DNA of 64,000 nucleotides from Candidatus Bathyarchaeota archaeon (GCA_963832745.1 CAWHVC010000005.1:64001-128000), one strand, 5' to 3'. Positions 6,451-58,585 are shown, counted from the first letter of the stretch. Translations and numbers: made by a program. Notes: generated from the letters alone by a model not told the origin.

Positions 6451-8370
6451 TTAAATTTTTAGGACAACCCGCCAGGCTTCTTCGAAGGCATTAAAGATTT
6501 TTCTTGGCGCGACACAGTCACCAATAGCATAAACCATCGGGGCAGCACCTGCATATTCTTTTGCATTTTTCGGTTTGAAACCTACCGCTGAAACTACAGT
6601 GTCAGCCTCAACTTCATGCTTTTGCCAAGAAGAATCAGAACAAACAACTTTGCCGCCTTTTATTTCATCCAAATGCCAACCAGTATGCACTTCAATGCAG
6701 GCTTCCATCAGTTTTTGAGTTAACGCCATTTGGCTTACCGGCTCCATGTCAACAAGGATATTGTCAAGCATTTCAACAATAACTGGCTGTTTTTTGAATT
6801 GCTGGGAAATATAAAGGGCTGTTTCAGCACCTACTAATCCGCCTCCGATAATGACGATTTTGTCGCCCACTGCTTGTTTGCCTATCAGTACATCAACGGC
6901 GTTAACGACGTTCATGTTCTCTGTTGGGACCATTAAAGAAACAGGGTCAGATCCACACGCAACTATAACGGCATCAGGGTTTAACGATTTTACTTGGTCA
7001 GGAGTCGCTTCAGTACCCAGTTTTACTTCTACGCCTAACTGGTTAACCTGCCGCAAAAGCCAATTAAAAAGCTGTTTAACGTCCCACTTAAACGCTGGCA
7101 CCGTACTCTCAAGCATGTGACCACCCAAAACCTGATTCTTCTCAAACAAGATTACCTTGTGCCCACGTAACGCTGCTACACGGGCCGCCTCCAAACCTGC
7201 TGGACCACCACCGACGATTACAACGGTTTTCTTGGGATCCGTCGGGGTGATTGCGAAGTCTTTTTCTCTGCCGCATTGGGGGTTAACTTCGCAACGTATT
7301 GCTTGACCAGTGAAAAACCGTGACAAGCAGCCTTCGTTTCCGCGTATGCATGGGCGAATGTCATCTTTTTTGCCTTCCGCCAATTTTTTAGGTATGTATG
7401 GGTCAGCAATTAGAGCGCGTCCAAGAGCAACTAAATCTGCTTTGCCTTCTTTTAACGCCTGCTCACCTTCATCCACATTAAGAGAACCAACCGTTAACAC
7501 TGGAACAGAAACCAGTTTTTTAATTGCCTCCGCGTAAGGAACGAGAAATGCCCTTGGAACATACACTGGCTGAATAAACTCGGGCAACGTCTCGTAAATC
7601 CCAGCGGTAACGTTGAGATAGTCTACGCCTGCGTTTGAAAGCATCCTTGCGAACAGGGCTGTTTCTTCAATGCGCAGTCCACAGGGCATGAACTCGTCTG
7701 CAGACATACGGTAACCCACAACAAAATCTTCACCAACCTTTTCCTTGACTCTTTGAAATGTTTCAAGTGCAAACAAGGCACGGTTTTCAAGTGAGCCGCC
7801 ATAAATGTCGGTGCGTTTGTTTGTTATTGGTGAAAGGAACTGGTCCATAAGGTAACCATGGGCACCGTGAAGTTCCACACCATCCAGCCCCGCCTGCTTT
7901 GCCCGTCTTGCAGCTTCAGCAAATGAATCCTGAATTAAATCAATCTCATCTAAGTCAAGCTCTCGAGGCATAACACCGAGAAATTGGCAGGGAACGGCTG
8001 ACGGCGCAACAGGTTGCAACCCCATCATGTTTGACGTGGTTTGATTGCCTGCATGACAAATCTGCAAGATTGCAGGCGCGCCTTCTGCGTGTATGGCTTC
8101 GGCAAGTTCGCTTAGCCCGGTTATCATGTGGTCGTTTTGGACGCCGAGTTGGCTTATGGCTGCTTTGCTTTCTGCCTCGTCGATAAAGCTGTATTCTAAA
8201 ATTATCATGCCTACGCCGCCTTTGGCTCGTTCAGTGTAGTATTTTATCATTTTTTGTGTAACTGACCCGTCAGGCCGGGCAAGGCGGGTACACATGGGAG
8301 CCATAACAAAACGGTTTTTTAAAGCTAAGTTTTTAAGATTAAAGGGTTCAAGTAATTTCCAATTATCCAA
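6451..8370 (-). CDS. NADH:flavin oxidoreductase (Old Yellow Enzyme + FAD domain; FadH/BaiH-like)
   Basis: NRFVMAPM, ELHGAHGYL, NKRTDIYGGSLENR, Fe-S region CIRGNEGC...C, two GxGxxG motifs. Confidence 0.92.
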   Translation of the reverse strand: MDNWKLLEPFNLKNLALKNRFVMAPMCTRLARPDGSVTQKMIKYYTERAKGGVGMIILEYSFIDEAESKAAISQLGVQNDHMITGLSELAEAIHAEGAPAILQICHAGNQTTSNMMGLQPVAPSAVPCQFLGVMPRELDLDEIDLIQDSFAEAARRAKQAGLDGVELHGAHGYLMDQFLSPITNKRTDIYGGSLENRALFALETFQRVKEKVGEDFVVGYRMSADEFMPCGLRIEETALFARMLSNAGVDYLNVTAGIYETLPEFIQPVYVPRAFLVPYAEAIKKLVSVPVLTVGSLNVDEGEQALKEGKADLVALGRALIADPYIPKKLAEGKKDDIRPCIRGNEGCLSRFFTGQAIRCEVNPQCGREKDFAITPTDPKKTVVIVGGGPAGLEAARVAALRGHKVILFEKNQVLGGHMLESTVPAFKWDVKQLFNWLLRQVNQLGVEVKLGTEATPDQVKSLNPDAVIVACGSDPVSLMVPTENMNVVNAVDVLIGKQAVGDKIVIIGGGLVGAETALYISQQFKKQPVIVEMLDNILVDMEPVSQMALTQKLMEACIEVHTGWHLDEIKGGKVVCSDSSWQKHEVEADTVVSAVGFKPKNAKEYAGAAPMVYAIGDCVAPRKIFNAFEEAWRVVLKI

Positions 8371-8749: not shown

Positions 8750-9582
8750 TGCGTTGGTTCTGCCCCAGGTTCGTTGATTAATTCTTCTTGTAATCTAAAG
8801 GCGTTAATCATTCGTCTGAAGGCGTCGGTTAATTCGTCAATTTCGTCGCCGGTTTTTAGATTAATGTTTTCTTTGAGGTAATGCCGCTGGGTCATGTCGC
8901 CTAAGCTTACTTTGTGTGCAATTTCAACGAGTTTCTTAAGTGGAAGGGTGATGCGGTTTCCAATGGTTACTGCCAACACGACTGAGATGGCAGCTGTTAC
9001 TCCAATGAACACGACAGCTAGTATTGTGCTGAAAGCTGCATAGTTTTGGGATGCTGTTGTGGCTGCTGCAACGTTGTTCATTGTGATTGTTCTTACTTCT
9101 TGAAGTTTTGTGTCTGCTTGGGAAACTGCGTTCATCAGAACGGTTATTTGTGTCCATGTTTGGGATACTTGTTGGTCACCTGATAGGGAGCTGCTGCTTA
9201 TGATTGAGCTGATTTGTGTGATGGCTGGGTCTATCGTTTGTTTGTCTATGTTTACGACTTCGTTGAATTTTGCTAAAAGGTCGGGGTCATTTGCTAAGTC
9301 GGCTTGCAGGTTTGTTTGGGCTTCTACGATGATTTCTGCACTGTTGACCATTATTTGTTCGCCTTGTTCGGGGCTGTTCATTGTGTACATGATTGTGCCG
9401 AATTGTTTTTGGTCTAATCCTTGGGCGTATGCGTAGGCGTTGTTGTTGATGTCTACTTGTTTGTTTACTTGTGCTTCTAGGTTTTGCATTTGGGATGTGT
9501 TGTATGCAGTGGCTGCTCCTGCCGCTACAAATAGTGCTACTAGTATTAGGTATGAGAGGAGTAGTTTTCGTCTGATTTTCAT
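8746..9582 (-). CDS. Membrane sensor: TM - helical sensor domain - TM - HAMP, no output domain
   Basis: MKIRRKLLLSY start with RBS AGGTGA; ITLPLKKL...GD...DEIDELTDAFRRM HAMP, then stop. Confidence 0.85.
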   Translation of the reverse strand: MKIRRKLLLSYLILVALFVAAGAATAYNTSQMQNLEAQVNKQVDINNNAYAYAQGLDQKQFGTIMYTMNSPEQGEQIMVNSAEIIVEAQTNLQADLANDPDLLAKFNEVVNIDKQTIDPAITQISSIISSSSLSGDQQVSQTWTQITVLMNAVSQADTKLQEVRTITMNNVAAATTASQNYAAFSTILAVVFIGVTAAISVVLAVTIGNRITLPLKKLVEIAHKVSLGDMTQRHYLKENINLKTGDEIDELTDAFRRMINAFRLQEELINEPGAEPTQ

Positions 9583-13052: not shown

Positions 13053-13616
13053 CTATAAAGGGATTGGTGGGTAGTATGTAAGTTGGTAAGAATGTAGTAG
13101 TGGATAGAAGATATAAGCAGGCATAAGGTGATAGTTGGAATTGTTGGTGTGGAGATTGGGTTGTAGTTGGGTTTGGTGTAGGTTGTGGATGGGTGGGTTG
13201 ATATGTATAAACTGTATGGTGTTAACGTAGGACAAATATTTGGGGTTGTCGCTTCTTTGATTTAGTATAATAGAATAGATAGATATTGAGCTTAGGAAGA
13301 TTTGGTAAGTTGGCGTAATGCTGTGCGTTACTACGTGTAATTGTCCGTCACTGACTAAATGGACTGAGCTATTGTACAATCCATCGATACTGTAATTCAT
13401 TGATATTTGAGGGTCTAATTGACTCATGACGCCTGCGCTAATGTTATGTTCAAAGCAATATTGGTGTTGTAATAGGTTGTGTTTACAGGCGAATATACTG
13501 TTACGCTAGAGTCAAACGTAACAGCATCGGTGGAATCAGCTTTGGCAGGGCATAGATAGAATAAAGTAAAGAAGTAATAAGGAGAAAACTGTTATTGAGG
13601 TAAGTACTCTTTTCAT
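13053..13616 (-). pseudogene. Fragmented secreted/surface protein gene
   Basis: Signal-peptide start MKRVLTSITVF, then SSVTVYSPVNTTY and MNYSIDG pieces in different frames. Confidence 0.4.
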
Positions 13617-13759
13617 TTGGCATCAGTAACTGAATTATTACAGGTTCCTAATAGTTCTCCCAGGAACAGCTATGCAAAAGAACGGTTAATACCAGTATCT
13701 TTACAACCAAAGGGTAAGGGTACACCTGTCAGGGGAAAAGGTGTCATTATTTCAAGTTT

Positions 13760-14525
13760 GGGTTTTTTCGATGCTTCAAAAAGCAAAACTGCGACTACAA
13801 CAATTACAATAATTACAACTGCTACTTCAAGGCTAAGGTGCTTGTAGCAACAAAAAAAGTGACAGCTTGTTTATCAGTATAGCCGAATGTGTCATTAGCT
13901 AACGTAAGTTGATGAATCCACCGGATAGTTGTGGTAGTGTGGTATTGCATAAAGCGTTATGTTGTCTTTTCCGTAAGACTGTATCCCATCATCCTGCAAT
14001 GTAACTGTAAAGTCTAAAGTCACGTTGGATTCCAAGTAAGGCATGCTTGAAGGTGACAAATATTCACTTCCATAGGAACGCTTGATAGTATAATTGATAT
14101 CATTGAGGCGCATAGGGTTTTCAACAAATAAATATAATTGCAGAACAGGGTATTGTAAAACACCTGAGGTTGAAGCAGTAAAATTAAAAGAGCTTCTGTG
14201 TTGGGGTAAAAATCGTAAAGCGTGTTATAATTAGCTCTTCAATTTTACTCCCACACGATAAGTCGTTGGTTTCCATTATTGAAGACATCAGGATAATAAT
14301 GAAAATTGGTGACGTTGAAATAGCCTTCAACATAATCACCTTCCAATAATTGCAACCGTAATAAGACTATTTTCTCAGGAACCAAAGTAAAATTTTCATA
14401 TATTACATGCGTAAATTCAGTGGCGGAACTCTCAAACGCTGATTGAGCAGTTACACCTTCACTAACCATTAGCTTAGGGTTGAGAAAGCAATTAGAATCA
14501 GCACTATAGCAAGAGCTTTATTCAA
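13760..14525 (-). pseudogene. Fragmented membrane-anchored surface protein gene
   Basis: ORF pieces 14245-14469 and 13895-14113 plus hydrophobic tail; multiple frameshifts. Confidence 0.35.
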
Positions 14526-15366
14526 AATAGCATGCTTACACATGCATTGTTTTTATGATAAAAGGTTTGCAGTAAAACATTCTTGACTAAGGTTAGTAAA
14601 GGTTTCTTGACCTAACAAGAAGCCCTGCCAAACAAAGTTATTTTTGGTCCTGTTTTTCCACTTTGGTAACTAACTCCTAATGCTACAAATGGTAAGAAAA
14701 AATGGTTTCACTATAATCTCAAAAAATCAGCAAGTAACAACAAAATTAGTCCACAACAGATAAAATGCACCGTAACGGCTAAACAACAATGCTATTGCAG
14801 TAATACTTCTTTCCAAGTTAGCCTTAGTTTTCTTCAAGTAAGCGTTTATGGCGAATATGAAAGCAGGATCGCAAATATAAAACATAAGTTATCGTTAGAA
14901 ATATTGGCTACTAATAATAAAAGCAGAATAAGTAAAATAGTGAAGAATCAAGAAGACTAAAACCTGACCAATCAACCAAACTATTGCGTATCTACGCCTT
15001 AATTTTAAAAGATGAGAGTGCTTATCTTGATTACTTGCCATAAACTAAGTAATATTGCATTATAAAAGAACTTTTTTGAAATAAAATCAAGTTAACGGTA
15101 AATATAATAATAAACGTCTAATCGTAAAGCGATAGAGGGTACATGTTCATCCAGCTAATGGGGCATAGTTGGTTAACACATGTCTTTTCCTCATATAGGG
15201 GTACTCTCTGCTAAGAAAAGGGTAACTTGTTATTCTTCTTGATTGGTTTCTTCAGGGATATGGGTCATCAAAGAGCACCAACCGGCATAATTTCAAAAAA
15301 GCCTCTTGCAACACTTTTCAGCGCACTGTTGATTATTTGGAGAGATTTTTATGTCTTCTCAAAGAA

Positions 15367-15512
15367 TTAGGTGGTGTTTTTTTCTTTTGTATTTTGTATT
15401 AGCCATAGTATTGCGTCGTCGTAGGTGGTTTCTTTGCCTGTTTTGGAGGTGATGAGTCCTTTTATTTTGGTTAGTTCGGTGTGTGTGGTGTCGTTTATTT
15501 GAGGGTTCTCAT
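15367..15512 (-). pseudogene. Small RHH/antitoxin-like DNA-binding protein (one frameshift)
   Basis: MRTL(K)INDTTHTELTKIKGLITSKTGKETTYDDAILWLI; strand-helix-helix pattern. Confidence 0.5.
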
Positions 15513-15942
15513 TGGGTGGCCTTATTGCCTATAGGGTGGAATTGTTATTAATGGTTGCTATCAATCGTTACTAATGATAAGTAATAAATACTAACAGTGC
15601 CTAACAAGACTACCAGTGAACGCTAATGGTAAAAATACTACATAAAACTAGACAAACAAACCTACCAAACACTACAACAAATCCAAAAAAACCTCCAAAC
15701 CCTCACAACCTACTCGAAAACATAGAAATCGAAATAGACGAAGAAGAAAGAAGCAACCAGCCCCTCCAAACCAAATCACAAGACACATACCCGACCACGG
15801 GCCTAGCTGGTTGTGGCAGTTTGCATAATCCGCTTGCAACCCACAAAAACCGCAGACACGAAAACACAAACCCCTGCAAGGCCCTTTGGTTGGTGTGCTA
15901 AGGGAAATTACCAACAAAAAAAGAAACGGTTTAAGTAAAGTT

Positions 15943-15970
15943 TGAGTGCAGAGAGTGGGATTTAAAGCCC
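15943..15970 (-). repeat. Degenerate copy of the tRNA-Leu 3' end (older att site)
   Basis: TGAGTGCAGAGAGTGGGATTTAAAGCCC versus TGGTGCAGGGGGTGGGATTT(G)AACCC. Confidence 0.5.
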
Positions 15971-16790
15971 CAACAAGTGGAGTCGCCCACAACTCCATTT
16001 TTCTCATTATTTTTTAATGTCAATAATTTGCATATTTAACGTGTATAATATCGAGAGTTTGCCACACTTAAAGAAAGTAGTTCTAAACACCAATACTTGA
16101 GGATTAGCTGTGTCTTGTTTGGAGATTACGGTCAGGTTGGCAAGTCATGACAGTAAATTCAGAGAAAAGAACTATTTAACAGAGTTAGTTATTTTTTTGG
16201 TGCCTCTCCATTTGAAACGGGGAAAAATGTTTCAATTCTTTTGGTATTTTGATTTTTCTTTTTAACCTCTTTGGTTCTATAATCAAAGTTTGTTTTGATT
16301 TTTAAGTCGTTTACTTTTGCTTTTTTCGATGTCATTTCTTTTCTACCTCTAAAGATTTTTTGTTTCGAAGAATTGATTTCTTATCGAGCATGGATCTCTA
16401 TTGCTGCCTCATCTGAGGCGATAGTGTATAAGCAATTACGGTTTTGCATATTTTCCCAGGGGCGGTTTACCTTTTGGGAAAATCTACATCTTCGCGGCGT
16501 TAGGCATTTTTGCCCAAATTAACGCTTCACCCAACCTTCTTTTCTTCTCTTAGACGAGCTTTGCCAGAATCACATGTTTCATTAAATACATGTGATCAAA
16601 GAATCCCATAAACCAATAGAGCCAGAGCCATTCTTTTAAATCATTCTATACAAGAAAAATTTCACGTATATACGTGTCCATCTAATTTTATTCTTGTACA
16701 CAATGGCATAGGCGAACATAGTTGGCACCAAGCCTTAAATAAAATTGAGTGAAACTCACCCGAAAAAAAACTCCTATAGTTTTGTATTGT

Positions 16791-16815
16791 TGGTGCAGGG
16801 GGGGGATTTGAACCC
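16791..16815 (-). repeat. attR: direct repeat of the tRNA-Leu 3' end (T-arm to CCA)
   Basis: TGGTGCAGGGGGGGGATTTGAACCC matches 21211-21235 apart from single-base indels. Confidence 0.9.
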
Positions 16816-16895
16816 TGTCGCCCGTGGAGAAATCACCCGCCCTCTTTCCTTTTTTCTTTACTATTGCAAATTAGGGCTTCTATTATGCCTAAAAA

Positions 16896-17681
16896 TTGTA
16901 TCCATCTAATCGTCGAATTCTATCTCCAACTCTTAACTCCTGCGAGCAAGGAAAATACAAAGAGGCTTGGAGCGAAAATCTTGAACGAATTATTGCCCAA
17001 TCCCAAAACGAACTAAAAAATCACAGTGTTACTCCAGAAAATGCAGTTTTAACCCAAAAAGGCATTCAAGCGTCTTTGCCGTCTTCACTTGATAATAACG
17101 GACAATTCTCACCTACATCAAAAACAGCTAATTGCTGGAGCAAGAAGCAAAAAAGAGCCTACCACTGTGCAATATCAGGACTAAAAAGATGCAAAGCATT
17201 AGGCTACAAAGCATTCTTCCTAACACTCACCAGCTCACCAAAAACAAATCATCCAGACTTAAGAAAAGACTGGGACATACTTGTAAAGCGCATACGAAAG
17301 CTCTTTCCTAAATTCCAATACGTAAAAGTTGAAACATTCGAAGGCTATGGCGTCATTCATGCACTTTATCATCATGCTTTTGAAGACTGGAACTACAAAG
17401 ATATTCACCATTGGATAAGCAAAGCATGGTCAGATATTCATCAAGCACCTATAGTTTGGAATAGTGTTGTAGGTGAAGGTTGGTCAATCAAAAAAGTAGC
17501 TGGTTACCTCTGCCAATATATGAGTAGCCAACGAGGCTTTTTTAGACGTAGCACATCTTTAAACTGGATATTCGCTGGTTACAGGAAAAAATGGGTTTCT
17601 TTGATCAAGAAGTATGAATTTAGAAAAGCACTTCGTGCATGGAATTTTCTTTTGACGGTCCCTGCAATCTATACCACATAA
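16896..17681 (+). CDS. rep: Rolling-circle replication initiator (HUH endonuclease, two-Tyr type)
   Basis: Motif I FFLTLTS, motif II-like GVIHALYHH, motif III VAGYLCQYMS. True start uncertain. Confidence 0.8.
   Translation: MYPSNRRILSPTLNSCEQGKYKEAWSENLERIIAQSQNELKNHSVTPENAVLTQKGIQASLPSSLDNNGQFSPTSKTANCWSKKQKRAYHCAISGLKRCKALGYKAFFLTLTSSPKTNHPDLRKDWDILVKRIRKLFPKFQYVKVETFEGYGVIHALYHHAFEDWNYKDIHHWISKAWSDIHQAPIVWNSVVGEGWSIKKVAGYLCQYMSSQRGFFRRSTSLNWIFAGYRKKWVSLIKKYEFRKALRAWNFLLTVPAIYTT
17076..17105 (+). other. Putative double-strand origin (nick site) inside rep
   Basis: TCTTCACTTGATAATAAC resembles pC194/phiX174-type CTTG^ATA and sits in the loop of the TTG-CCGT...ACGG-A-CAA stem. Confidence 0.65.
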
Positions 17682-17809
17682 GAAACGTTTCTTAAAAAAT
17701 ATTTAGATGTACTTGGACCTAATAGGGCGATTTGATGATGGGTTGCATAACGATTATTGGCAAGATTTTATTAATAAAAAAATCCTAACTTGCTCTATTA
17801 GAATAGGTA

Positions 17810-19705
17810 ATGAAGTGCATTAAAATGAGCAATAACGATGAATTTAAATCAATCTACAAAGATCTTGAAGACAAAAATTACCCAGTTAGGCATCTAAAGA
17901 ATGTCGCCGATGTTTTTCAAAAAATCCGAGACCAAATGCATAAGGAAGGAAAAACAGATGAAGAAGCAAAGGCTCAGTGGGAAGTAGATGTCTTCAACTT
18001 AATGATCGATGCAAATATTGTTAAGCCTATGTTCGTTATGACAAATGAGAAAGGCGAAGAGATAATCTACCCGAATACGAGTGCATTTACCGAAAAAACA
18101 TATGAATATTTCATTGAAAGATTGGATTTGACTAATAATCCTCAACTTAGATCACGCTATGCTCACATACTTTGGCTAAGCCCAAAAAAACATGGAAAAT
18201 TTGCGCAAATAGCGATAGACGATTATTTGGAACTTGTTAAAATATATGAAAAAAAGGACATCGATGACCCATCTGGACTTTTTGGTTTAGATATTATCAA
18301 TTCAATCGAAAATGCTTTTGCATTGGCAACAAATATCGGTGACTTAACTCGGGTTAATACCCTAAAGAATGAGATTAAGCGATTAATCGTTAATTTCAAT
18401 CCAGTTAGCAAGTCTTTATTTGTTTTGAGGGCTCAATTGATTGATCTGATGTTTAAATATGGGAAGTTTTTTGTAAGCGAAGATTTTCAAGGACTAAATA
18501 ATTTATGCTTGAATTATGCCCAACAACTTCAGGATTGTCATCAATCGATTACCATTTTAGAGATAGGTGCTAAAATCGATCAAAAGCTTGGTAGCTCGAT
18601 TGCTAATTGGAAGCAACTAATCGCTGAATGCTTTGAAAAAATGATGATTGCTAATATTGAAAAAAATAAGCTCGCTGCACTTCATTTCTGCGAGTTAGCA
18701 CTAAAATATTATAGAGAAATCAAAAATACGTTAAAGATAAATGAATTAGAGAAAGTTTATGATCAATTAAAAAATGAAGCTGAATTTAAAGAAATTAGTG
18801 TTCCAATAGACCTTACGGACTACATTAAGCAATGTGAAGAGACTGCCAAGAAACTCTCTGGATTTTCAAGCGAAGACATAATCAAGTATCTCATTAGTGA
18901 ACCAACCTTATTACCGAAATACAAAGATGTTGAGAAATCAGCAATCGAAATAAGCAAAGGGCATTTTGCAAGTGTTATACCGCATACCGTATCAGACGAA
19001 AGAGGACATGTTGAACAGCATTTTAGTACTGATGACGAATTACGGGAATTCCAAACGCTCCAACATTATGATAGGACTCTACAAGTCCAGAGCATGCAGC
19101 TAGTAAATAGACTAATAATCGAAGCTGTAAAAGCAAAAAAACTTGGCTTTCAGTCAGCTATTACATTTTTTAGTAAATATTCATGGTTTGGGAAAACTCT
19201 CAAAAGGAAGAGTCAAAATAAAGATATCCAATATAATTGGCTTAACCTCCTAGCCCCTGCTATTCAAGAATACTTTGCTCAATTAGAATACTTTCTAGCA
19301 TCTGGAAAGCCTCCTCATTTCGTGCTTGCACTTGATTCTTTGGTTCTAAAAATTGAGGGGCTTATTCGAGATTTGTGCACATTATCTGGAGTAATAACTT
19401 TCGAACAGAAAATGGACAATAAGAACAGAATAATCTATCGCGAGAAAGACATAACGAAATTGTTACACGACGAAAAATTTGGAGCTTTGATTGGAGAGGA
19501 CGACCTGTTTTTATTAAAATTTGTCTTAACAGAGAAAGCAGGCTATAACCTTAGGCATAGAACAGCCCACTCACTATTGTTGTTCGAAGAATATACAATG
19601 TTTTACATGAATTTGTTATTCATGATATTGTTAAAACTAAGCAAATACGATCTTAAGAGTACTGAACAACCGATCAAAGATGTAAAGGAGACAGCGCCTG
19701 TCTAA
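17810..19705 (+). CDS. DUF4209-like protein with C-terminal HEPN-type RxxxxH motif
   Basis: Long helical N-terminus; C-terminal LKIEGLIRDL...GEDDLFLLKFVL..KAGYNLRHRTAHSLL; AT-rich. Confidence 0.75.
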   Translation: MKCIKMSNNDEFKSIYKDLEDKNYPVRHLKNVADVFQKIRDQMHKEGKTDEEAKAQWEVDVFNLMIDANIVKPMFVMTNEKGEEIIYPNTSAFTEKTYEYFIERLDLTNNPQLRSRYAHILWLSPKKHGKFAQIAIDDYLELVKIYEKKDIDDPSGLFGLDIINSIENAFALATNIGDLTRVNTLKNEIKRLIVNFNPVSKSLFVLRAQLIDLMFKYGKFFVSEDFQGLNNLCLNYAQQLQDCHQSITILEIGAKIDQKLGSSIANWKQLIAECFEKMMIANIEKNKLAALHFCELALKYYREIKNTLKINELEKVYDQLKNEAEFKEISVPIDLTDYIKQCEETAKKLSGFSSEDIIKYLISEPTLLPKYKDVEKSAIEISKGHFASVIPHTVSDERGHVEQHFSTDDELREFQTLQHYDRTLQVQSMQLVNRLIIEAVKAKKLGFQSAITFFSKYSWFGKTLKRKSQNKDIQYNWLNLLAPAIQEYFAQLEYFLASGKPPHFVLALDSLVLKIEGLIRDLCTLSGVITFEQKMDNKNRIIYREKDITKLLHDEKFGALIGEDDLFLLKFVLTEKAGYNLRHRTAHSLLLFEEYTMFYMNLLFMILLKLSKYDLKSTEQPIKDVKETAPV

Positions 19706-19740
19706 AACTGTGGGCTATCAAAACAAGTAGATCAGACGTA

Positions 19741-19851
19741 TGCGCTCAGGGAGGAGTGCGGGGGGTACCCTTTAGGGTAGGGTCATCCGCTACGACAACC
19801 GAGGCGCTTAACCGTCGTCGCCCTGGAACGTCCGAGACGGCGATAGCCGTC
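19741..19851. other. GC-rich hairpin cluster (single-strand origin or ncRNA candidate)
   Basis: TGCGCTC/GAGTGCG, TACCC-TTTA-GGGTA, ACGAC/GTCGT, GACGGC-GATA-GCCGTC stems in AT-rich surroundings. Confidence 0.5.
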
Positions 19852-20013
19852 CAACTTCTACTGAAGATGCTTTCAAACCTTTGTAAACCATGGACTTTGT
19901 TAATTTTTTTTCAGAAAAATCCAATCCAACATGCAGATAGCGATTTTTTATCAACCTAATATTATATCCAAAGTTAAGGAGTTGAAGTTTAACGGTTTTC
20001 CTAAAAAATACTA

Positions 20014-21150
20014 ATGGAGGTGAAACGGCAAGTAGAGAATGACTTGATTGTAGTAGTAAGAGAAATGTAAAGATGGCTTAAGAGAAACAAGCTTTGGTTC
20101 GTTTACGTTTTCTTTGTCGTGATTGTGGTTTTAGGTTTAGTGATTCTAAAGGCTTAAATCTAGACAGCCCCTCTATGGCGTTAGCCAATTATGCGCTGAA
20201 ATTGAGGCGAAAAAATTGGACACAGCAACAGAAACAAAACTGTTGCGGGTGAATCTAAAACTCAAAGCTGACGGAAAAATCCTTGAAAATGCTTGGTGGC
20301 TAAAGAAGAACGGTAGAAGCGAATCAACCATAGAAAGCAGAGTAAAACTGTTAAAGACGTGTTAAACGAGGCGCAAATCTCAATGACCCCGAAACCATCA
20401 AAGATGTAATAGCAATGCAAACGTGGAGGCAGGAAGAAAAAACAATGCTTCAGATGCCTACTCAGCATATCTAAAAATGGTGGGTGGCAAATGGGAAGCA
20501 CCACAATACAAAAAAATCCGTAAACTACCATTCATCCCCAAAGAAAACGAAATGACCACTCATAGCTGGAAGTAGCCCACGCATGGCAGTATTCCTACAG
20601 CTACTAAAAGAGACAGGCGCAAGATGTGGAGAAATCTGGCACTCAAATGGTAAGATATAGACTTCGAAAGCAAAGTAGTCAACATTACACCTGAAAAAAA
20701 CAGCAACCCAAGAGTGCTACATCTAAGCAACAAATTCTTGAAATGCTTACAAATCTACCAAAACGGTACGGTCAAAGAGTTTTCTCGCTACCAAAAATGC
20801 GAATAGATAACTTTGCAGTAAACTTCCAAAGACAACGAAAAAGAACTATCAACATAAATTGAAAAATCCACGGCTAATAAAAATTCACTTCCACACACTA
20901 CGCTATTGGAAAGGCACTATTCTATACCATCAGTATCGTTCAGAACATGTCTAGTCATGCAAAAGTTAGGTCACAAGAACATAGCAAACACACTCTTGTA
21001 TATCCAACTCGAAGAAGCACTGTTTCAAGGAGACTGCTAATACACTTCAAAAGTAGCTAAAACTGAAAAGGAAATATGCGCTTTAATCGAAGCAGGCTTT
21101 GAGTACGTCACCGATTTTCAGGGGAGCTAAAATCTTCAAAGAGGAAGTAA
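20014..21150 (+). pseudogene. int: Tyrosine integrase with N-terminal zinc ribbon (multiple frameshifts)
   Basis: Pieces KDGLRETSFG..RFLCRDCGFRFS; LLKETGARCGE; TPEKNSNPR; HFHTLRYWKGT; LGHKNIANTLLY; ALIEAGFEYVTD. Confidence 0.85.
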
Positions 21151-21210
21151 CAAGAGGAAAACCAAAAAAACAGAAACATCGCGAAGTACCCCCATACTAA
21201 TTGCTTATAT

Positions 21211-21296
21211 TGGTGCAGGGGGTGGGATTTAACCCACGAACCTCTAGAGGATAGGCTCTGAAGCCTACGCCTTTGACCATGCTCGGCGACCCCTGC
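21211..21296 (-). tRNA. tRNA-Leu (probably CAG) with encoded CCA; anticodon loop and T-loop each one base short
   Basis: Acceptor GCAGGGG/CCCCTGC, discriminator A + CCA, D-arm GCC..GGC, TAGGC-TTCAGA-GCCTA, long variable arm CCTC-TA-GAGG. Confidence 0.85.
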
Positions 21297-21383
21297 ATGC
21301 ACCGCAGATAGGTTAGTACCCTTGAAGATAACTTTTACTGATAAATACGTTACCACCCCCACCGGGGGTTTGTTGCGTTTTAG

Positions 21384-21441
21384 CCAACCTATTTGGCGTC
21401 TATTAGGGTTCTAATAGAGGTTCTATGCAGAATGCCTGTAG
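21384..21441. repeat. Partial inverted copy of the palindromic element at 58141-58239
   Basis: CCAACCTATTTGGCGTCTATTAGGGTTCTAATAGAGGTTCTATGCAG matches the reverse complement of about 58180-58238. Confidence 0.85.
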
Positions 21442-21609
21442 TGCAAAAAGCATGGAAAAATTTAAGACAAGGCGTAAGAAAACACGGTAAAAGTGTAAAT
21501 TTACGCTATTACCCTATTTCATGGTAAACAGCATTGTAAACAAACAGGCAATCTTACATTTTTTGTAAACGGCCACTTAGCGGCGATTCCGTAAAAGAAG
21601 CAAAAAACG

Positions 21610-21800
21610 GTGTTTTTACAGACTAACGCCAATTGCAGCATTCTAAAAGAACATCTCGATTATCTCGCACAACAAGGCCTAGTGGAAGAGAGTACTGAAA
21701 TTAAAAACACATAGTTTATGCTATTACTAAACGTGGTATAACTGTTCTAAATTACTTTGAAGAACTAAAAAAGGCCTTGCCAATATTAGAGGTAACATAA
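21610..21800 (+). pseudogene. Winged-helix regulator fragment (archaeal HTH_45-like)
   Basis: TNANCSILKEHLDYLAQQGLVEE / VYAITKRGITVLNYFEELKKALPI in two frames. Confidence 0.55.
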
Positions 21801-21958
21801 CTCAATACTGAGCGCCACTTTAGTTTTTTAACCTTGGGCTAAGCATTTCTATTCAAAATTGGGTGACATTCTCTCTAAACTGTTAATTTTTTATCTTTAA
21901 TGTCGGAAGATTTTATATTAAATATCATTTATTAATACTCAAACATTAATTTAAATCA

Positions 21959-22405
21959 ATGTCGTTAGATAATTTAGACAGGGCGATAATAGAAGCCTTG
22001 AGTGTTGGTGTTTGTTCTTATGAAGATTTGGCGAAGCAGTGTGGTGTTACCCGTAACACTGTTTATAGGCGGATTATGTTGCTTGAAGAGAAAGGCGTTA
22101 TAACCAACAGGTTGAGTTGTGTTTTAAACTTTGGCAAATTGGGTATTTCTGTTGTTTTAGTTAGTTTAAAAGTTCCAGAAACGGATGTTAAATCTGTTGT
22201 TTCAGCGCTTGTGGCTTTTGAGTTTGTAAAGTTTGTTTGGCGTGCTTATGGCGAATTTAGCGTAGTTTTTGTTGCTTTTAGTGTTAAAGGATTTGAAGGG
22301 GAAATGATTAGTGAGTTACGACAGAAGTTAGAGGAACTTGGTATTGTTAGTTTTAATTTTTCTGTGGGGTATGAATGGGAGAAAGAGAATTATTCACCTT
22401 TTTAA
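21959..22405 (+). CDS. Lrp/AsnC family transcriptional regulator
   Basis: LDNLDRAII...LAKQCGVTRNTVYRRIMLLEEKGVI; RAM-type C-domain. Confidence 0.85.
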   Translation: MSLDNLDRAIIEALSVGVCSYEDLAKQCGVTRNTVYRRIMLLEEKGVITNRLSCVLNFGKLGISVVLVSLKVPETDVKSVVSALVAFEFVKFVWRAYGEFSVVFVAFSVKGFEGEMISELRQKLEELGIVSFNFSVGYEWEKENYSPF

Positions 22406-22517
22406 TTTTATGCATTTTAGGCAGATTGTCACTTCTTTGGAGCAACAAAGTGAATTATTCTTAAAGTTTTTATAGTAAAAACAGCTATACTCATTTCTTA
22501 AGAAAGGAGATTAAAGC

Positions 22518-58140: not shown

Positions 58141-58239
58141 ACCAACCTATTTGGTTCCTATTAGAAATTGTATGCAGAAACCTATAGGTTTTTGCATAGA
58201 ACTGCTATTAGGATCCTAATAGACGCCAAATAGGTTGGT
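58141..58239. repeat. 99-bp palindromic element with 14-bp terminal inverted repeats
   Basis: ACCAACCTATTTGG...CCAAATAGGTTGGT; internal TATGCAGAAACCTA/TAGGTTTTTGCATA and CTATTAGGATCCTAATAG. Confidence 0.85.
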
Positions 58240-58585
58240 AAACAACATAGCGAAAGCAAAGACAGCACAATAACAAACAGGCGATGCTACAGTTTTTCGT
58301 TAAGTTACTGAATTTCTTGCACTCTACTCAAAATTAGCAAACCCGCCAACTACATCAACAACAAAAAGCCTCAATCTAACGTACTAACGACTTAGCTTTT
58401 CAAGAAATAGAACTGCTATCATGTACTTTATTGGTTTTTGGGTTCCAAGGCGGTTTGGCGTTGATTTGGTTGTTATGCTTTTTTTGAACATTTTTCTGTT
58501 TTTGTGCTGATAAAATTTATAAGCAGGCATGCACACCTGTGCTTTAGGTGAAGCGGTGCAGAACCGCTTTTACACTGGTGAACGT

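Follow-up and report, generated by a model that had tools for sequence, protein, structure and literature searches.

The analysed window is a 64,000-nucleotide stretch (C5:64001-128000) of the genome of Candidatus Bathyarchaeota archaeon (GCA_963832745.1), which is 3.02 Mb long, is assembled into 5 contigs, and has a completeness of 99%. The coding density is 0.8-1.0 across most of the window. The segment 16790-21296 contains, in order, a tRNA 3'-end fragment, a 261-residue open reading frame (ORF), a 631-residue ORF, a GC-rich stretch, an ORF-poor region of about 1.1 kb, and a tRNA-like gene (Table 1). An earlier interpretation, made without comparison to other genomes and called here the sequence-only reading, described the segment as an excisable mini-replicon or virus satellite composed of attR, a replication initiator gene (rep), a DUF4209-like cargo gene, a hairpin cluster, an integrase gene (int), and tRNA-Leu. 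All of these parts are present where they were placed; however, the integrase, tRNA, and attachment (att) repeats are broken. The ORF 16896-17681 is indeed rep, the ORF 17810-19705 is indeed DUF4209-like, and we found no capsid, spike, or conjugation genes in the element, as that reading had reported. Comparison with related stretches (loci designated L, 660 kb stored in all) and with genomes of the class (designated G) indicates that the segment is likely to be an immobilised, partly decayed small integrative rolling-circle element of Bathyarchaeia.

Table 1. Features of the element and its left flank, in window coordinates
Feature	Position	Strand	Basis
Degenerate third copy of tRNA-Leu 3' end	15946..15974	-	79% identity to 21213-21241; aligned with tRNA 3' ends
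Distal att repeat, displaced tRNA-Leu 3' end, degraded	16790..16815	-	Two indels relative to 21210-21235
Leader, att to rep	16816..16895	+	Window 16780-16899 85% identical to L090 5633-5755
Rolling-circle-type Rep, 261 aa, intact, TTG start	16896..17681	+	PF23343 27.6 bits; phrog_3419 1.2e-7
Cargo gene, 631 aa, intact, N-terminal helical domain DUF7380 and C-terminal DUF4209 (HEPN)	17810..19705	+	Pfam; PADLOC PDC-S39
Conserved GC-rich block ending in hairpin	19745..19865	+	Similarity to L102 and L008
Pseudogene of tyrosine integrase with N-terminal zinc ribbon	20028..21160	+	Three-frame reading; comparison with L090 integrase
Degraded tRNA-Leu(CAG), carries proximal att repeat	21211..21296	-	ARAGORN; L090 alignment; Rfam

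Decay of the integrase, tRNA, and attachment sites

The approximately 1.1-kb region 20028-21160 contains no plus-strand ORF longer than 52 residues. Three-frame reading of 19950-21215 recovers pieces of a zinc-ribbon tyrosine integrase across all frames, separated by stops. The closest intact integrase is that of locus L090, from the same-genus genome G324, where it adjoins a tRNA-Leu(CAG). The two genes share 73% of their nucleotides (857/1169) and differ by 15 indels, 13 of which are not multiples of three, and at least four conserved codons, including that of the first zinc-ligand cysteine, are stops in the window. The integrase named in the sequence-only reading is recognisable, but as a pseudogene that lacks an intact ORF with the catalytic residues. 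The intact integrase of L002 matches PF00589 with an E-value of 2.4e-16 and a XerA-like model with 1e-22. A search with the 52-residue fragment for the integrase frameshift in other assemblies gave no candidate. Elsewhere in the genome, a full-length, uninterrupted zinc-ribbon integrase match (C2:87559-88737) is located beside tRNA-Leu(TAG) (C2:88801-88888), and an integrase of the zinc-ribbon family (C3:403882-404775) overlaps tRNA-Leu(GAG) (C3:404743-404830). With a 35-nt repeat at C3:388583, the repeat pair on C3 would bound an element of about 16 kb.

In comparison with the intact tRNA-Leu(CAG) of L090, the window tRNA has lost a G from the anticodon loop and a C from the T loop, and carries one substitution. 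Because of the base losses, ARAGORN assigns a 2-nt anticodon to the gene. Its best Rfam match is tRNA-Sec with 16.6 bits (E 0.94), whereas the L090 control scores 54.6 bits on RF00005; a tRNA-Leu is thus present as had been read, but it has lost two bases and fails the Rfam tRNA model. ARAGORN detected no second tRNA-Leu(CAG) in the genome, in which tRNA-Leu(TAG) and tRNA-Leu(GAG) are present. A UAG anticodon is able to read CUG by wobble.

The repeat of the tRNA 3' end that had been designated attR is located at 16790-16815, but it differs from 21210-21235 by two indels, which leave 13 nt exact. Each of the two copies contains one indel relative to the intact core. The repeats of relatives are exact over 25 nt in L002, 23 nt in L090, and 21 nt in L113. 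Since the integrase, tRNA, and att repeats are all degraded, the window copy cannot excise itself, and the description of it as excisable does not hold.

Long-read indel errors could give an intact element the appearance of a decayed one. The number of contigs suggests a long-read assembly, and the differences in the tRNA include single-base deletions. Nevertheless, the lesions are concentrated in the integrase and tRNA. There are about 17 of them in the approximately 1.15 kb of int and none in the 2.7 kb that rep and the cargo gene occupy next to it, which makes random assembly error a poor explanation. Furthermore, several of the lesions are nonsense substitutions and not indels, and int has diverged by 27% from its nearest relative. 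We consider an assembly artefact hardly probable. Equal neutral decay of all the parts cannot account for the difference in lesion density. Either selection keeps rep, the cargo gene, and the GC-rich block, or these parts arrived after the integrase had become a remnant.

Rep, the cargo gene, and the GC-rich block

The window Rep matches PF23343 (REP_ORF2-G2P), a family named, according to its Pfam description, for the Rep proteins of filamentous phages and plectroviruses, with an E-value of 3.6e-6, and phrog_3419, which is annotated as 'rolling circle DNA replication initiation'. The protein contains motif I (uTLT, with L111 and T112) and motif III, the catalytic tyrosine pair YxxxY (Y204 and Y208), and these four residues are invariant in 25 of 25 aligned sequences. 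Over 181 members of the family, they are conserved in 180 (L111), 172 (T112), 173 (Y204), and 175 (Y208). The first histidine of motif II, H155, is kept in 171 of the 181 members, whereas the second one of HUH lacks conservation; elsewhere in the family, motif II is H-U-U in many members and H-L-H, H-I-H, or H-Y-H in a minority. We expect the protein to be an initiator of the rolling-circle type whose metal-binding motif is non-canonical. The fold evidence from its AlphaFold (AF2) model (pLDDT 71), the best Foldseek matches of which are the origin-binding domain of AAV Rep68, pMV158 RepB, SIRV1 ORF119, and IS608 TnpA, is suggestive, not decisive. A sequence-profile search of the PDB with the Rep alignment gave no match.

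For the window Rep, 32 homologues were found, of which 25 share 56-97% identity with it, and a precomputed PF23343 match is recorded for 11 of the 32 listed. A profile search among 1.84 billion representatives found 3,018 sequences at E-values of up to 0.001, 1,156 at 1e-10, and 247 at 1e-30. The family occurs in 16 of 401 genomes and 6 of 131 genera of the class, with internal stops in several copies, and the window Rep is its sole member in its own genome. Overall, Rep is under purifying selection (dN 0.17-0.27, dS saturated). For pairs that include the window Rep, the saturation of dS prevents a branch-specific estimate of dN/dS.

Independent support for the function of Rep as a replication initiator is provided by small contigs with terminal overlaps. 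Overlaps of 75-127 nt are present in 15 of the 56 related loci tested. After trimming, twelve of these contigs are 0.9-1.6 kb long with a Rep match as the longest ORF (L009, L012, L014, L017, L023, L028, L030, L036, L039, L040, L048, and L053), and three are 3.7 kb long (L029, L050, and L051). The Rep homologues of these metagenome contigs are distant from the window Rep (30-42% identity). The overlaps by themselves suggest that the contigs are very small circular replicons.

The cargo protein matches DUF7380 with an E-value of 1.7e-13 and DUF4209 with 1.1e-6 (29 bits, cut-off 22.3). DUF4209 has been placed in the HEPN superfamily, as the C6orf70 family, in the available part of Anantharaman et al. 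2013 (PMC3710099). In addition to the domain match, the protein has the R-x4-6-H motif of the superfamily, and the segment N580-L581-R582-x3-A586-H587 that contains it is unchanged in all 26 homologues aligned. Two PADLOC models of the candidate system PDC-S39 match the protein with E-values of 6.5e-36 and 1.8e-31. We take PDC to stand for 'phage defence candidate', a designation that is presumably itself experimentally unverified, and we are aware of no experiment that has tested PDC-S39. The AF2 model of the cargo protein (pLDDT 83) is mostly helical. The protein is probably a sensor-coupled HEPN RNase that would serve as a one-gene module of the abortive-infection type against viruses or other mobile genetic elements. 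It is rare, as it was found in 3 of the 401 class genomes. The homologues in the two other class genomes and in one viral contig have no adjoining rep or int on the available stretches, and the viral homologue is a single distant match with 24% identity.

The GC-rich block is 88-95% identical among its copies, far above the identity of the neighbouring genes. It is 92-95% identical to the copies in L102 and L008, whereas the flanking genes are about 75% identical. The block is intact in the window though the adjoining integrase is ruined. Of the 401 class genomes, 9 contain it, among them 7 of the 40 in the genus, and the genome of the window has one copy. The distinct loci with a block number 11; they comprise L002, L008, and the 10 places that remain when the window's own copy is set aside, with G370:C13 being the same record as L004. 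The block is positioned 0-2.8 kb upstream of an integrase or its remnants, on the same strand, in 8 of the 11 loci, and a PF23343-type Rep or Rep fragment is located upstream of the block in 7. Copies other than that of the window include L002 9760-9869, L008 2470-2700, L112 8119-8340, and L113 6460-6553; those of L008 and L112 share an insert of approximately 115-120 nt, located at the same position. A hairpin terminates most copies, and its stem sequence varies from one copy to the next. The invariant core motif of the block occurs once in the genome and, among the stored loci, only in those that bear the block; hence it is missing from the small circular contigs.

The sequence-only reading had noted a hairpin cluster at this position. 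A conserved block is present there, but it folds no better than shuffled sequences (z-scores of -0.66 and -0.80), and we rejected the idea of an unusually stable structure. RNAalifold analysis of seven block copies identified one compensatory pair only, on either strand, and no Rfam match was found for the block in the window or in L008. Furthermore, the block cannot be the cognate origin of the RepA type alone, because it also accompanies a second PF23343 Rep type (L113 and L114) and is absent from L090. The block is a candidate single-strand origin or, alternatively, a candidate non-coding RNA or leader. Single-strand origins are structured cassettes common to unrelated rolling-circle plasmids. 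Separately from the block, L002 contains at 8793-8840 two tandem 24-nt repeats, each with a short inverted repeat, which overlap the end of rep and are a possible iteron or origin candidate.

Related elements and the history of the locus

Homologous elements with rep, cargo, and int are located at tRNA genes of Bathyarchaeia in L002, L113, L090, L008, L004, and L114, and the Rep and integrase homologues that the sequence-only reading proposed to search for therefore exist. L002, from a 390-kb contig of a Bathyarchaeota metagenome-assembled genome, contains an intact element of 3.3 kb, the att repeats of which start at 7891 and 11206, 3,315 bp apart. Its genes are, in order, rep (270 residues), a 281-residue cargo with a signal peptide and membrane anchor and with no Pfam family, the block, a 375-residue integrase, and tRNA-Phe. 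The 4.2-kb metagenome contig L008 carries rep, three small zinc-ribbon-like ORFs, one of which has a weak match to Pfam Zn_ribbon_3, the block, and a 420-residue integrase. L003 and L004 are decayed copies with a different cargo again. The 5.4-kb element of L113 is composed of rep, two ORFs, the block, one wHTH (winged helix-turn-helix) gene, int, and tRNA-Phe; its Rep has canonical H-I-H and YxxxY motifs and scores 30.7 bits on PF23343, above the cut-off of 27.8. L114 combines a Rep of the L113 type with ORFs over about 4.5 kb, with the block, and with fragments of an integrase. The 6.1-kb element of L090 contains a third Rep type (4.8e-24 against the RepA profile), four ORFs, the integrase, and an intact tRNA-Leu(CAG). 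In L084 and L085, Rep is paired with the zinc-ribbon integrase family, and L084 is also beside a tRNA-Arg.

The recurring order is att, rep, variable cargo, block (where present), int, and tRNA. In each relative, a different gene separates rep from the integrase module; these genes mostly encode surface or Ig-like proteins or small zinc-ribbon proteins. The cargo slot is truly variable, and its usual content is not defence. The swappable defence cassette of the sequence-only reading is thereby upheld with respect to the swapping, but not with respect to the defence. Upstream of the L090 element, between two att copies, there is a 546-residue OLD/AriA-like ATPase (L090 3656-5668; PADLOC AriA, 7.1e-27), which resembles a gene of the defence type housed in a compartment between tandem att copies.

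As judged from the intact relatives, the active form would be a circular replicon of 3-6 kb. The circle would be copied from a nick made by the two-tyrosine Rep, and the zinc-ribbon tyrosine integrase would insert it into the 3' end of a tRNA gene, with 21-25 nt of the tRNA duplicated as att. The integrated element would then be arranged as att, rep, variable cargo slot, conserved 120-nt GC-rich block, int, and tRNA. In the window copy, inactivating mutations have accumulated in the integrase, in the target tRNA-Leu(CAG), and in both att cores, whereas rep, the block, and the cargo gene are intact.

Several observations weigh against the reading of the segment as a decayed rolling-circle element. 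In the window clade, motif II of Rep is H155-A-L-Y-H-H and not His-hydrophobic-His, so that the HUH Rep with YxxxY described earlier is borne out in its tyrosines, whereas a literal HUH is missing (H-A-L). The PF23343 score is 0.2 bits below the cut-off, the matches of the Rep model to HUH proteins are weak (E 0.02-0.1, none at or below 0.001), the start codon is TTG versus ATG in L002, and no origin or nick site was identified for the element, the internal nick motif of the sequence-only reading included. The HEPN fold was not recovered for the cargo, as a whole-protein Foldseek search with its model returned TPR-like solenoids only (E of at least 2.8e-3). In a 98%-identical relative, the cargo is called over residues 59-438 only, which speaks against strong selection on it, unless that assembly is faulty; the cargo may be breaking down in the sister population. 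The lesions of the integrase and tRNA and the absence of a circular form are read from assembled sequence alone. Finally, intact paralogous integrases are encoded near tRNA-Leu(TAG) and tRNA-Leu(GAG) of the same genome, and excision in trans is therefore still conceivable.

A mini-replicon that is still mobile, and is excised in trans by a paralogous integrase, would fit the intact state of Rep, the block, and the cargo gene, and the presence of the integrase matches on C2, which is uninterrupted, and C3. Att sites as short as 8 bp are reported for thaumarchaeal elements in the available part of PMC6563490. However, the element's own integrase is destroyed, each att core contains an indel, the close relatives L003 and L004 are likewise decayed, and the paralogues serve other tRNA-Leu genes, which are 83-86% identical to the intact L090 tRNA-Leu(CAG) used as the query. 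We regard continued mobility as very improbable.

It is also necessary to consider a composite origin, in which a relic of the L090 type (int and tRNA) later acquired rep, cargo, and block, for example when an integrase-less circle was inserted in trans or recombined with the relic, and in which the intact parts are young instead of selected. The int is closest to that of L090, whereas rep is closest to the type of L002, L003, and L008. The att relic at 15946 points to repeated insertions at the site, L090 also has tandem att copies, circular contigs with a Rep match as the longest ORF exist, and the genome encodes other integrases of the family. In contrast, the locus has precisely the same gene order as L002 and L113, which are intact single elements, and there is no second att between the block and int. 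Moreover, the similarity to L002 and L008 does not stop at the block but extends over the first 80 codons of int (19750-20262), which means that any composite junction would have to be inside int. We judge a composite origin unlikely. At the left end, similarity to the window starts at 16785 in L003 and at 16825-16843 in L002, L004, and L007. The leader is 85% identical between the window and L090 although the two Reps share just 25% identity.

The naming of PF23343 after Reps of filamentous phages and plectroviruses could indicate a provirus or virus satellite instead of a plasmid-like element, and the cargo of L002 and L003, with its signal peptide and membrane anchor, might in principle, speculatively, be a vesicle or virion protein. 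However, capsid and packaging genes are missing from the locus, the IMG/VR viral contigs yielded no relative of Rep, the cargo of the window has only its one distant viral match, and the host chromosomes contain many paralogues of the L002- and L003-type cargo. A viral nature has, in our estimation, very little likelihood, and nothing points to the virus satellite proposed earlier. Taken together, the earlier observation of the element's parts is partly confirmed, and its interpretation is partly supported.

The flanks of the element contain additional repeats. To the left, window 13430-16790 is gene-poor and includes an A/C-rich tract at about 15600-15900, and the 60 nt at 14555-14614 match, at 90% and on the opposite strand, the beginning of the cargo gene of L003. 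The third tRNA 3'-end copy, the A/C tract, and the match to the L003 cargo are probably relics of earlier insertions; the tRNA 3'-end copy at 15946-15974 is probably a relic att site from an older tandem insertion. To the right of the tRNA, there are short dispersed repeats at 21379-21432, 21414-21570, and 21625-21792. The first is found at two other places in the genome (one of them window 58190-58242) and at four in G324; the second shares 89% identity with C3:135114-135271, and the third is present at 71-75% identity in 14 same-genus genomes. When the right flank (21297-22500) was used to look for the empty site in 46 genomes of the same genus, only short dispersed repeats were found, and no syntenic site. 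A crude finder (exact 23-mers occurring at least four times with 50-95 nt spacing) detected no CRISPR arrays in the genome.

Beyond the window copy, a tentative possibility is that the related loci represent an undescribed family in Bathyarchaeia whose members, from 3.3 kb upwards, would be the smallest rolling-circle replicons that integrate themselves. Such replicons may have been assembled from Rep-only circles of about 1 kb and an integrase module with a conserved structured 120-nt element (single-strand origin or non-coding RNA), with a one-gene exchangeable cargo slot between them, and the host may retain integrase-dead copies as defence islands with a single HEPN gene. As a fossil, the window copy is ordinary, whereas its relatives define a compact, modular type of element. 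Bathyarchaeia are among the most abundant archaeal classes in sediments, and the papers that we found describe their viruses and no small replicons. The intact 3.3-kb form, with Rep, one cargo, integrase, and tRNA-Phe att, would be a natural start for a genetic vector, which the lineage does not have. The family is additionally a simple system for following the swapping of cargo, candidate defence genes included, between archaeal genomes, and its GC-rich block, a conserved cis element or RNA, is so far unexplained.

Comparison with known systems

The literature searched, which did not cover the supplement of PMC6563490 that possibly lists more Rep-bearing elements, contains no description of such elements in Bathyarchaeia, in agreement with the sequence-only reading, which did not recognise the type as described for this lineage. 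The word 'rolling' is absent from the available part of a paper on Bathyarchaeia viruses (PMC10848311). The closest known elements, and of the same kind, are the cryptic integrated elements (CIE) of Thaumarchaeota, notably NitAQ6f-E2. According to the available part of Krupovic et al. 2019 (PMC6563490), CIE are 2.6-98 kb long and have short att sites, and NitAQ6f-E2 carries a rolling-circle replication endonuclease. The elements described here resemble CIE, as far as these are characterised in that part of the paper, in being small archaeal elements with short att repeats and a tyrosine integrase and without virion or conjugation genes. The defining combination of integrase and att, a replication gene, and the lack of virion and conjugation genes is found in L002, L113, and L090, and in the window copy as an inactivated relic. 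The differences are the host class, Bathyarchaeia, the fixed order of rep, cargo, block, and int with a conserved GC-rich block, and the decay of the window copy. In addition, the Rep of NitAQ6f-E2 is reported, in the same part of PMC6563490, to be homologous to the SNJ1/IS91-like type, whereas the profile match of the Rep described here is to PF23343.

The cargo gene resembles the DUF4209/C6orf70 HEPN family and PDC-S39 in its score above the DUF4209 cut-off, its invariant R-x4-H motif, and its match to the PDC-S39 models. The C6orf70 family is described in the available part of PMC3710099 as occurring in Bacteria more than in Eukaryotes, whereas the member described here serves as cargo in an archaeal mini-element.

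The window Rep shares with PF23343, which includes plectrovirus ORF2 and filamentous-phage G2P, and with phrog_3419 the profile matches, the TLT motif, and the YxxxY pair. It differs from PF23343 in the missing second histidine of HUH in its clade and in its score just under the cut-off, and from the phage Reps of the family in its location in an integrase-bearing archaeal element and not in a filamentous phage. The Thermotoga plasmids pRQ7 and pRKU1 are reportedly Rep-only miniature rolling-circle plasmids of 846 bp. The distant Rep relatives on circular-type contigs of 0.9-1.6 kb resemble such miniplasmids, which, unlike the window element, are without an integrase, a cargo gene, and the block.

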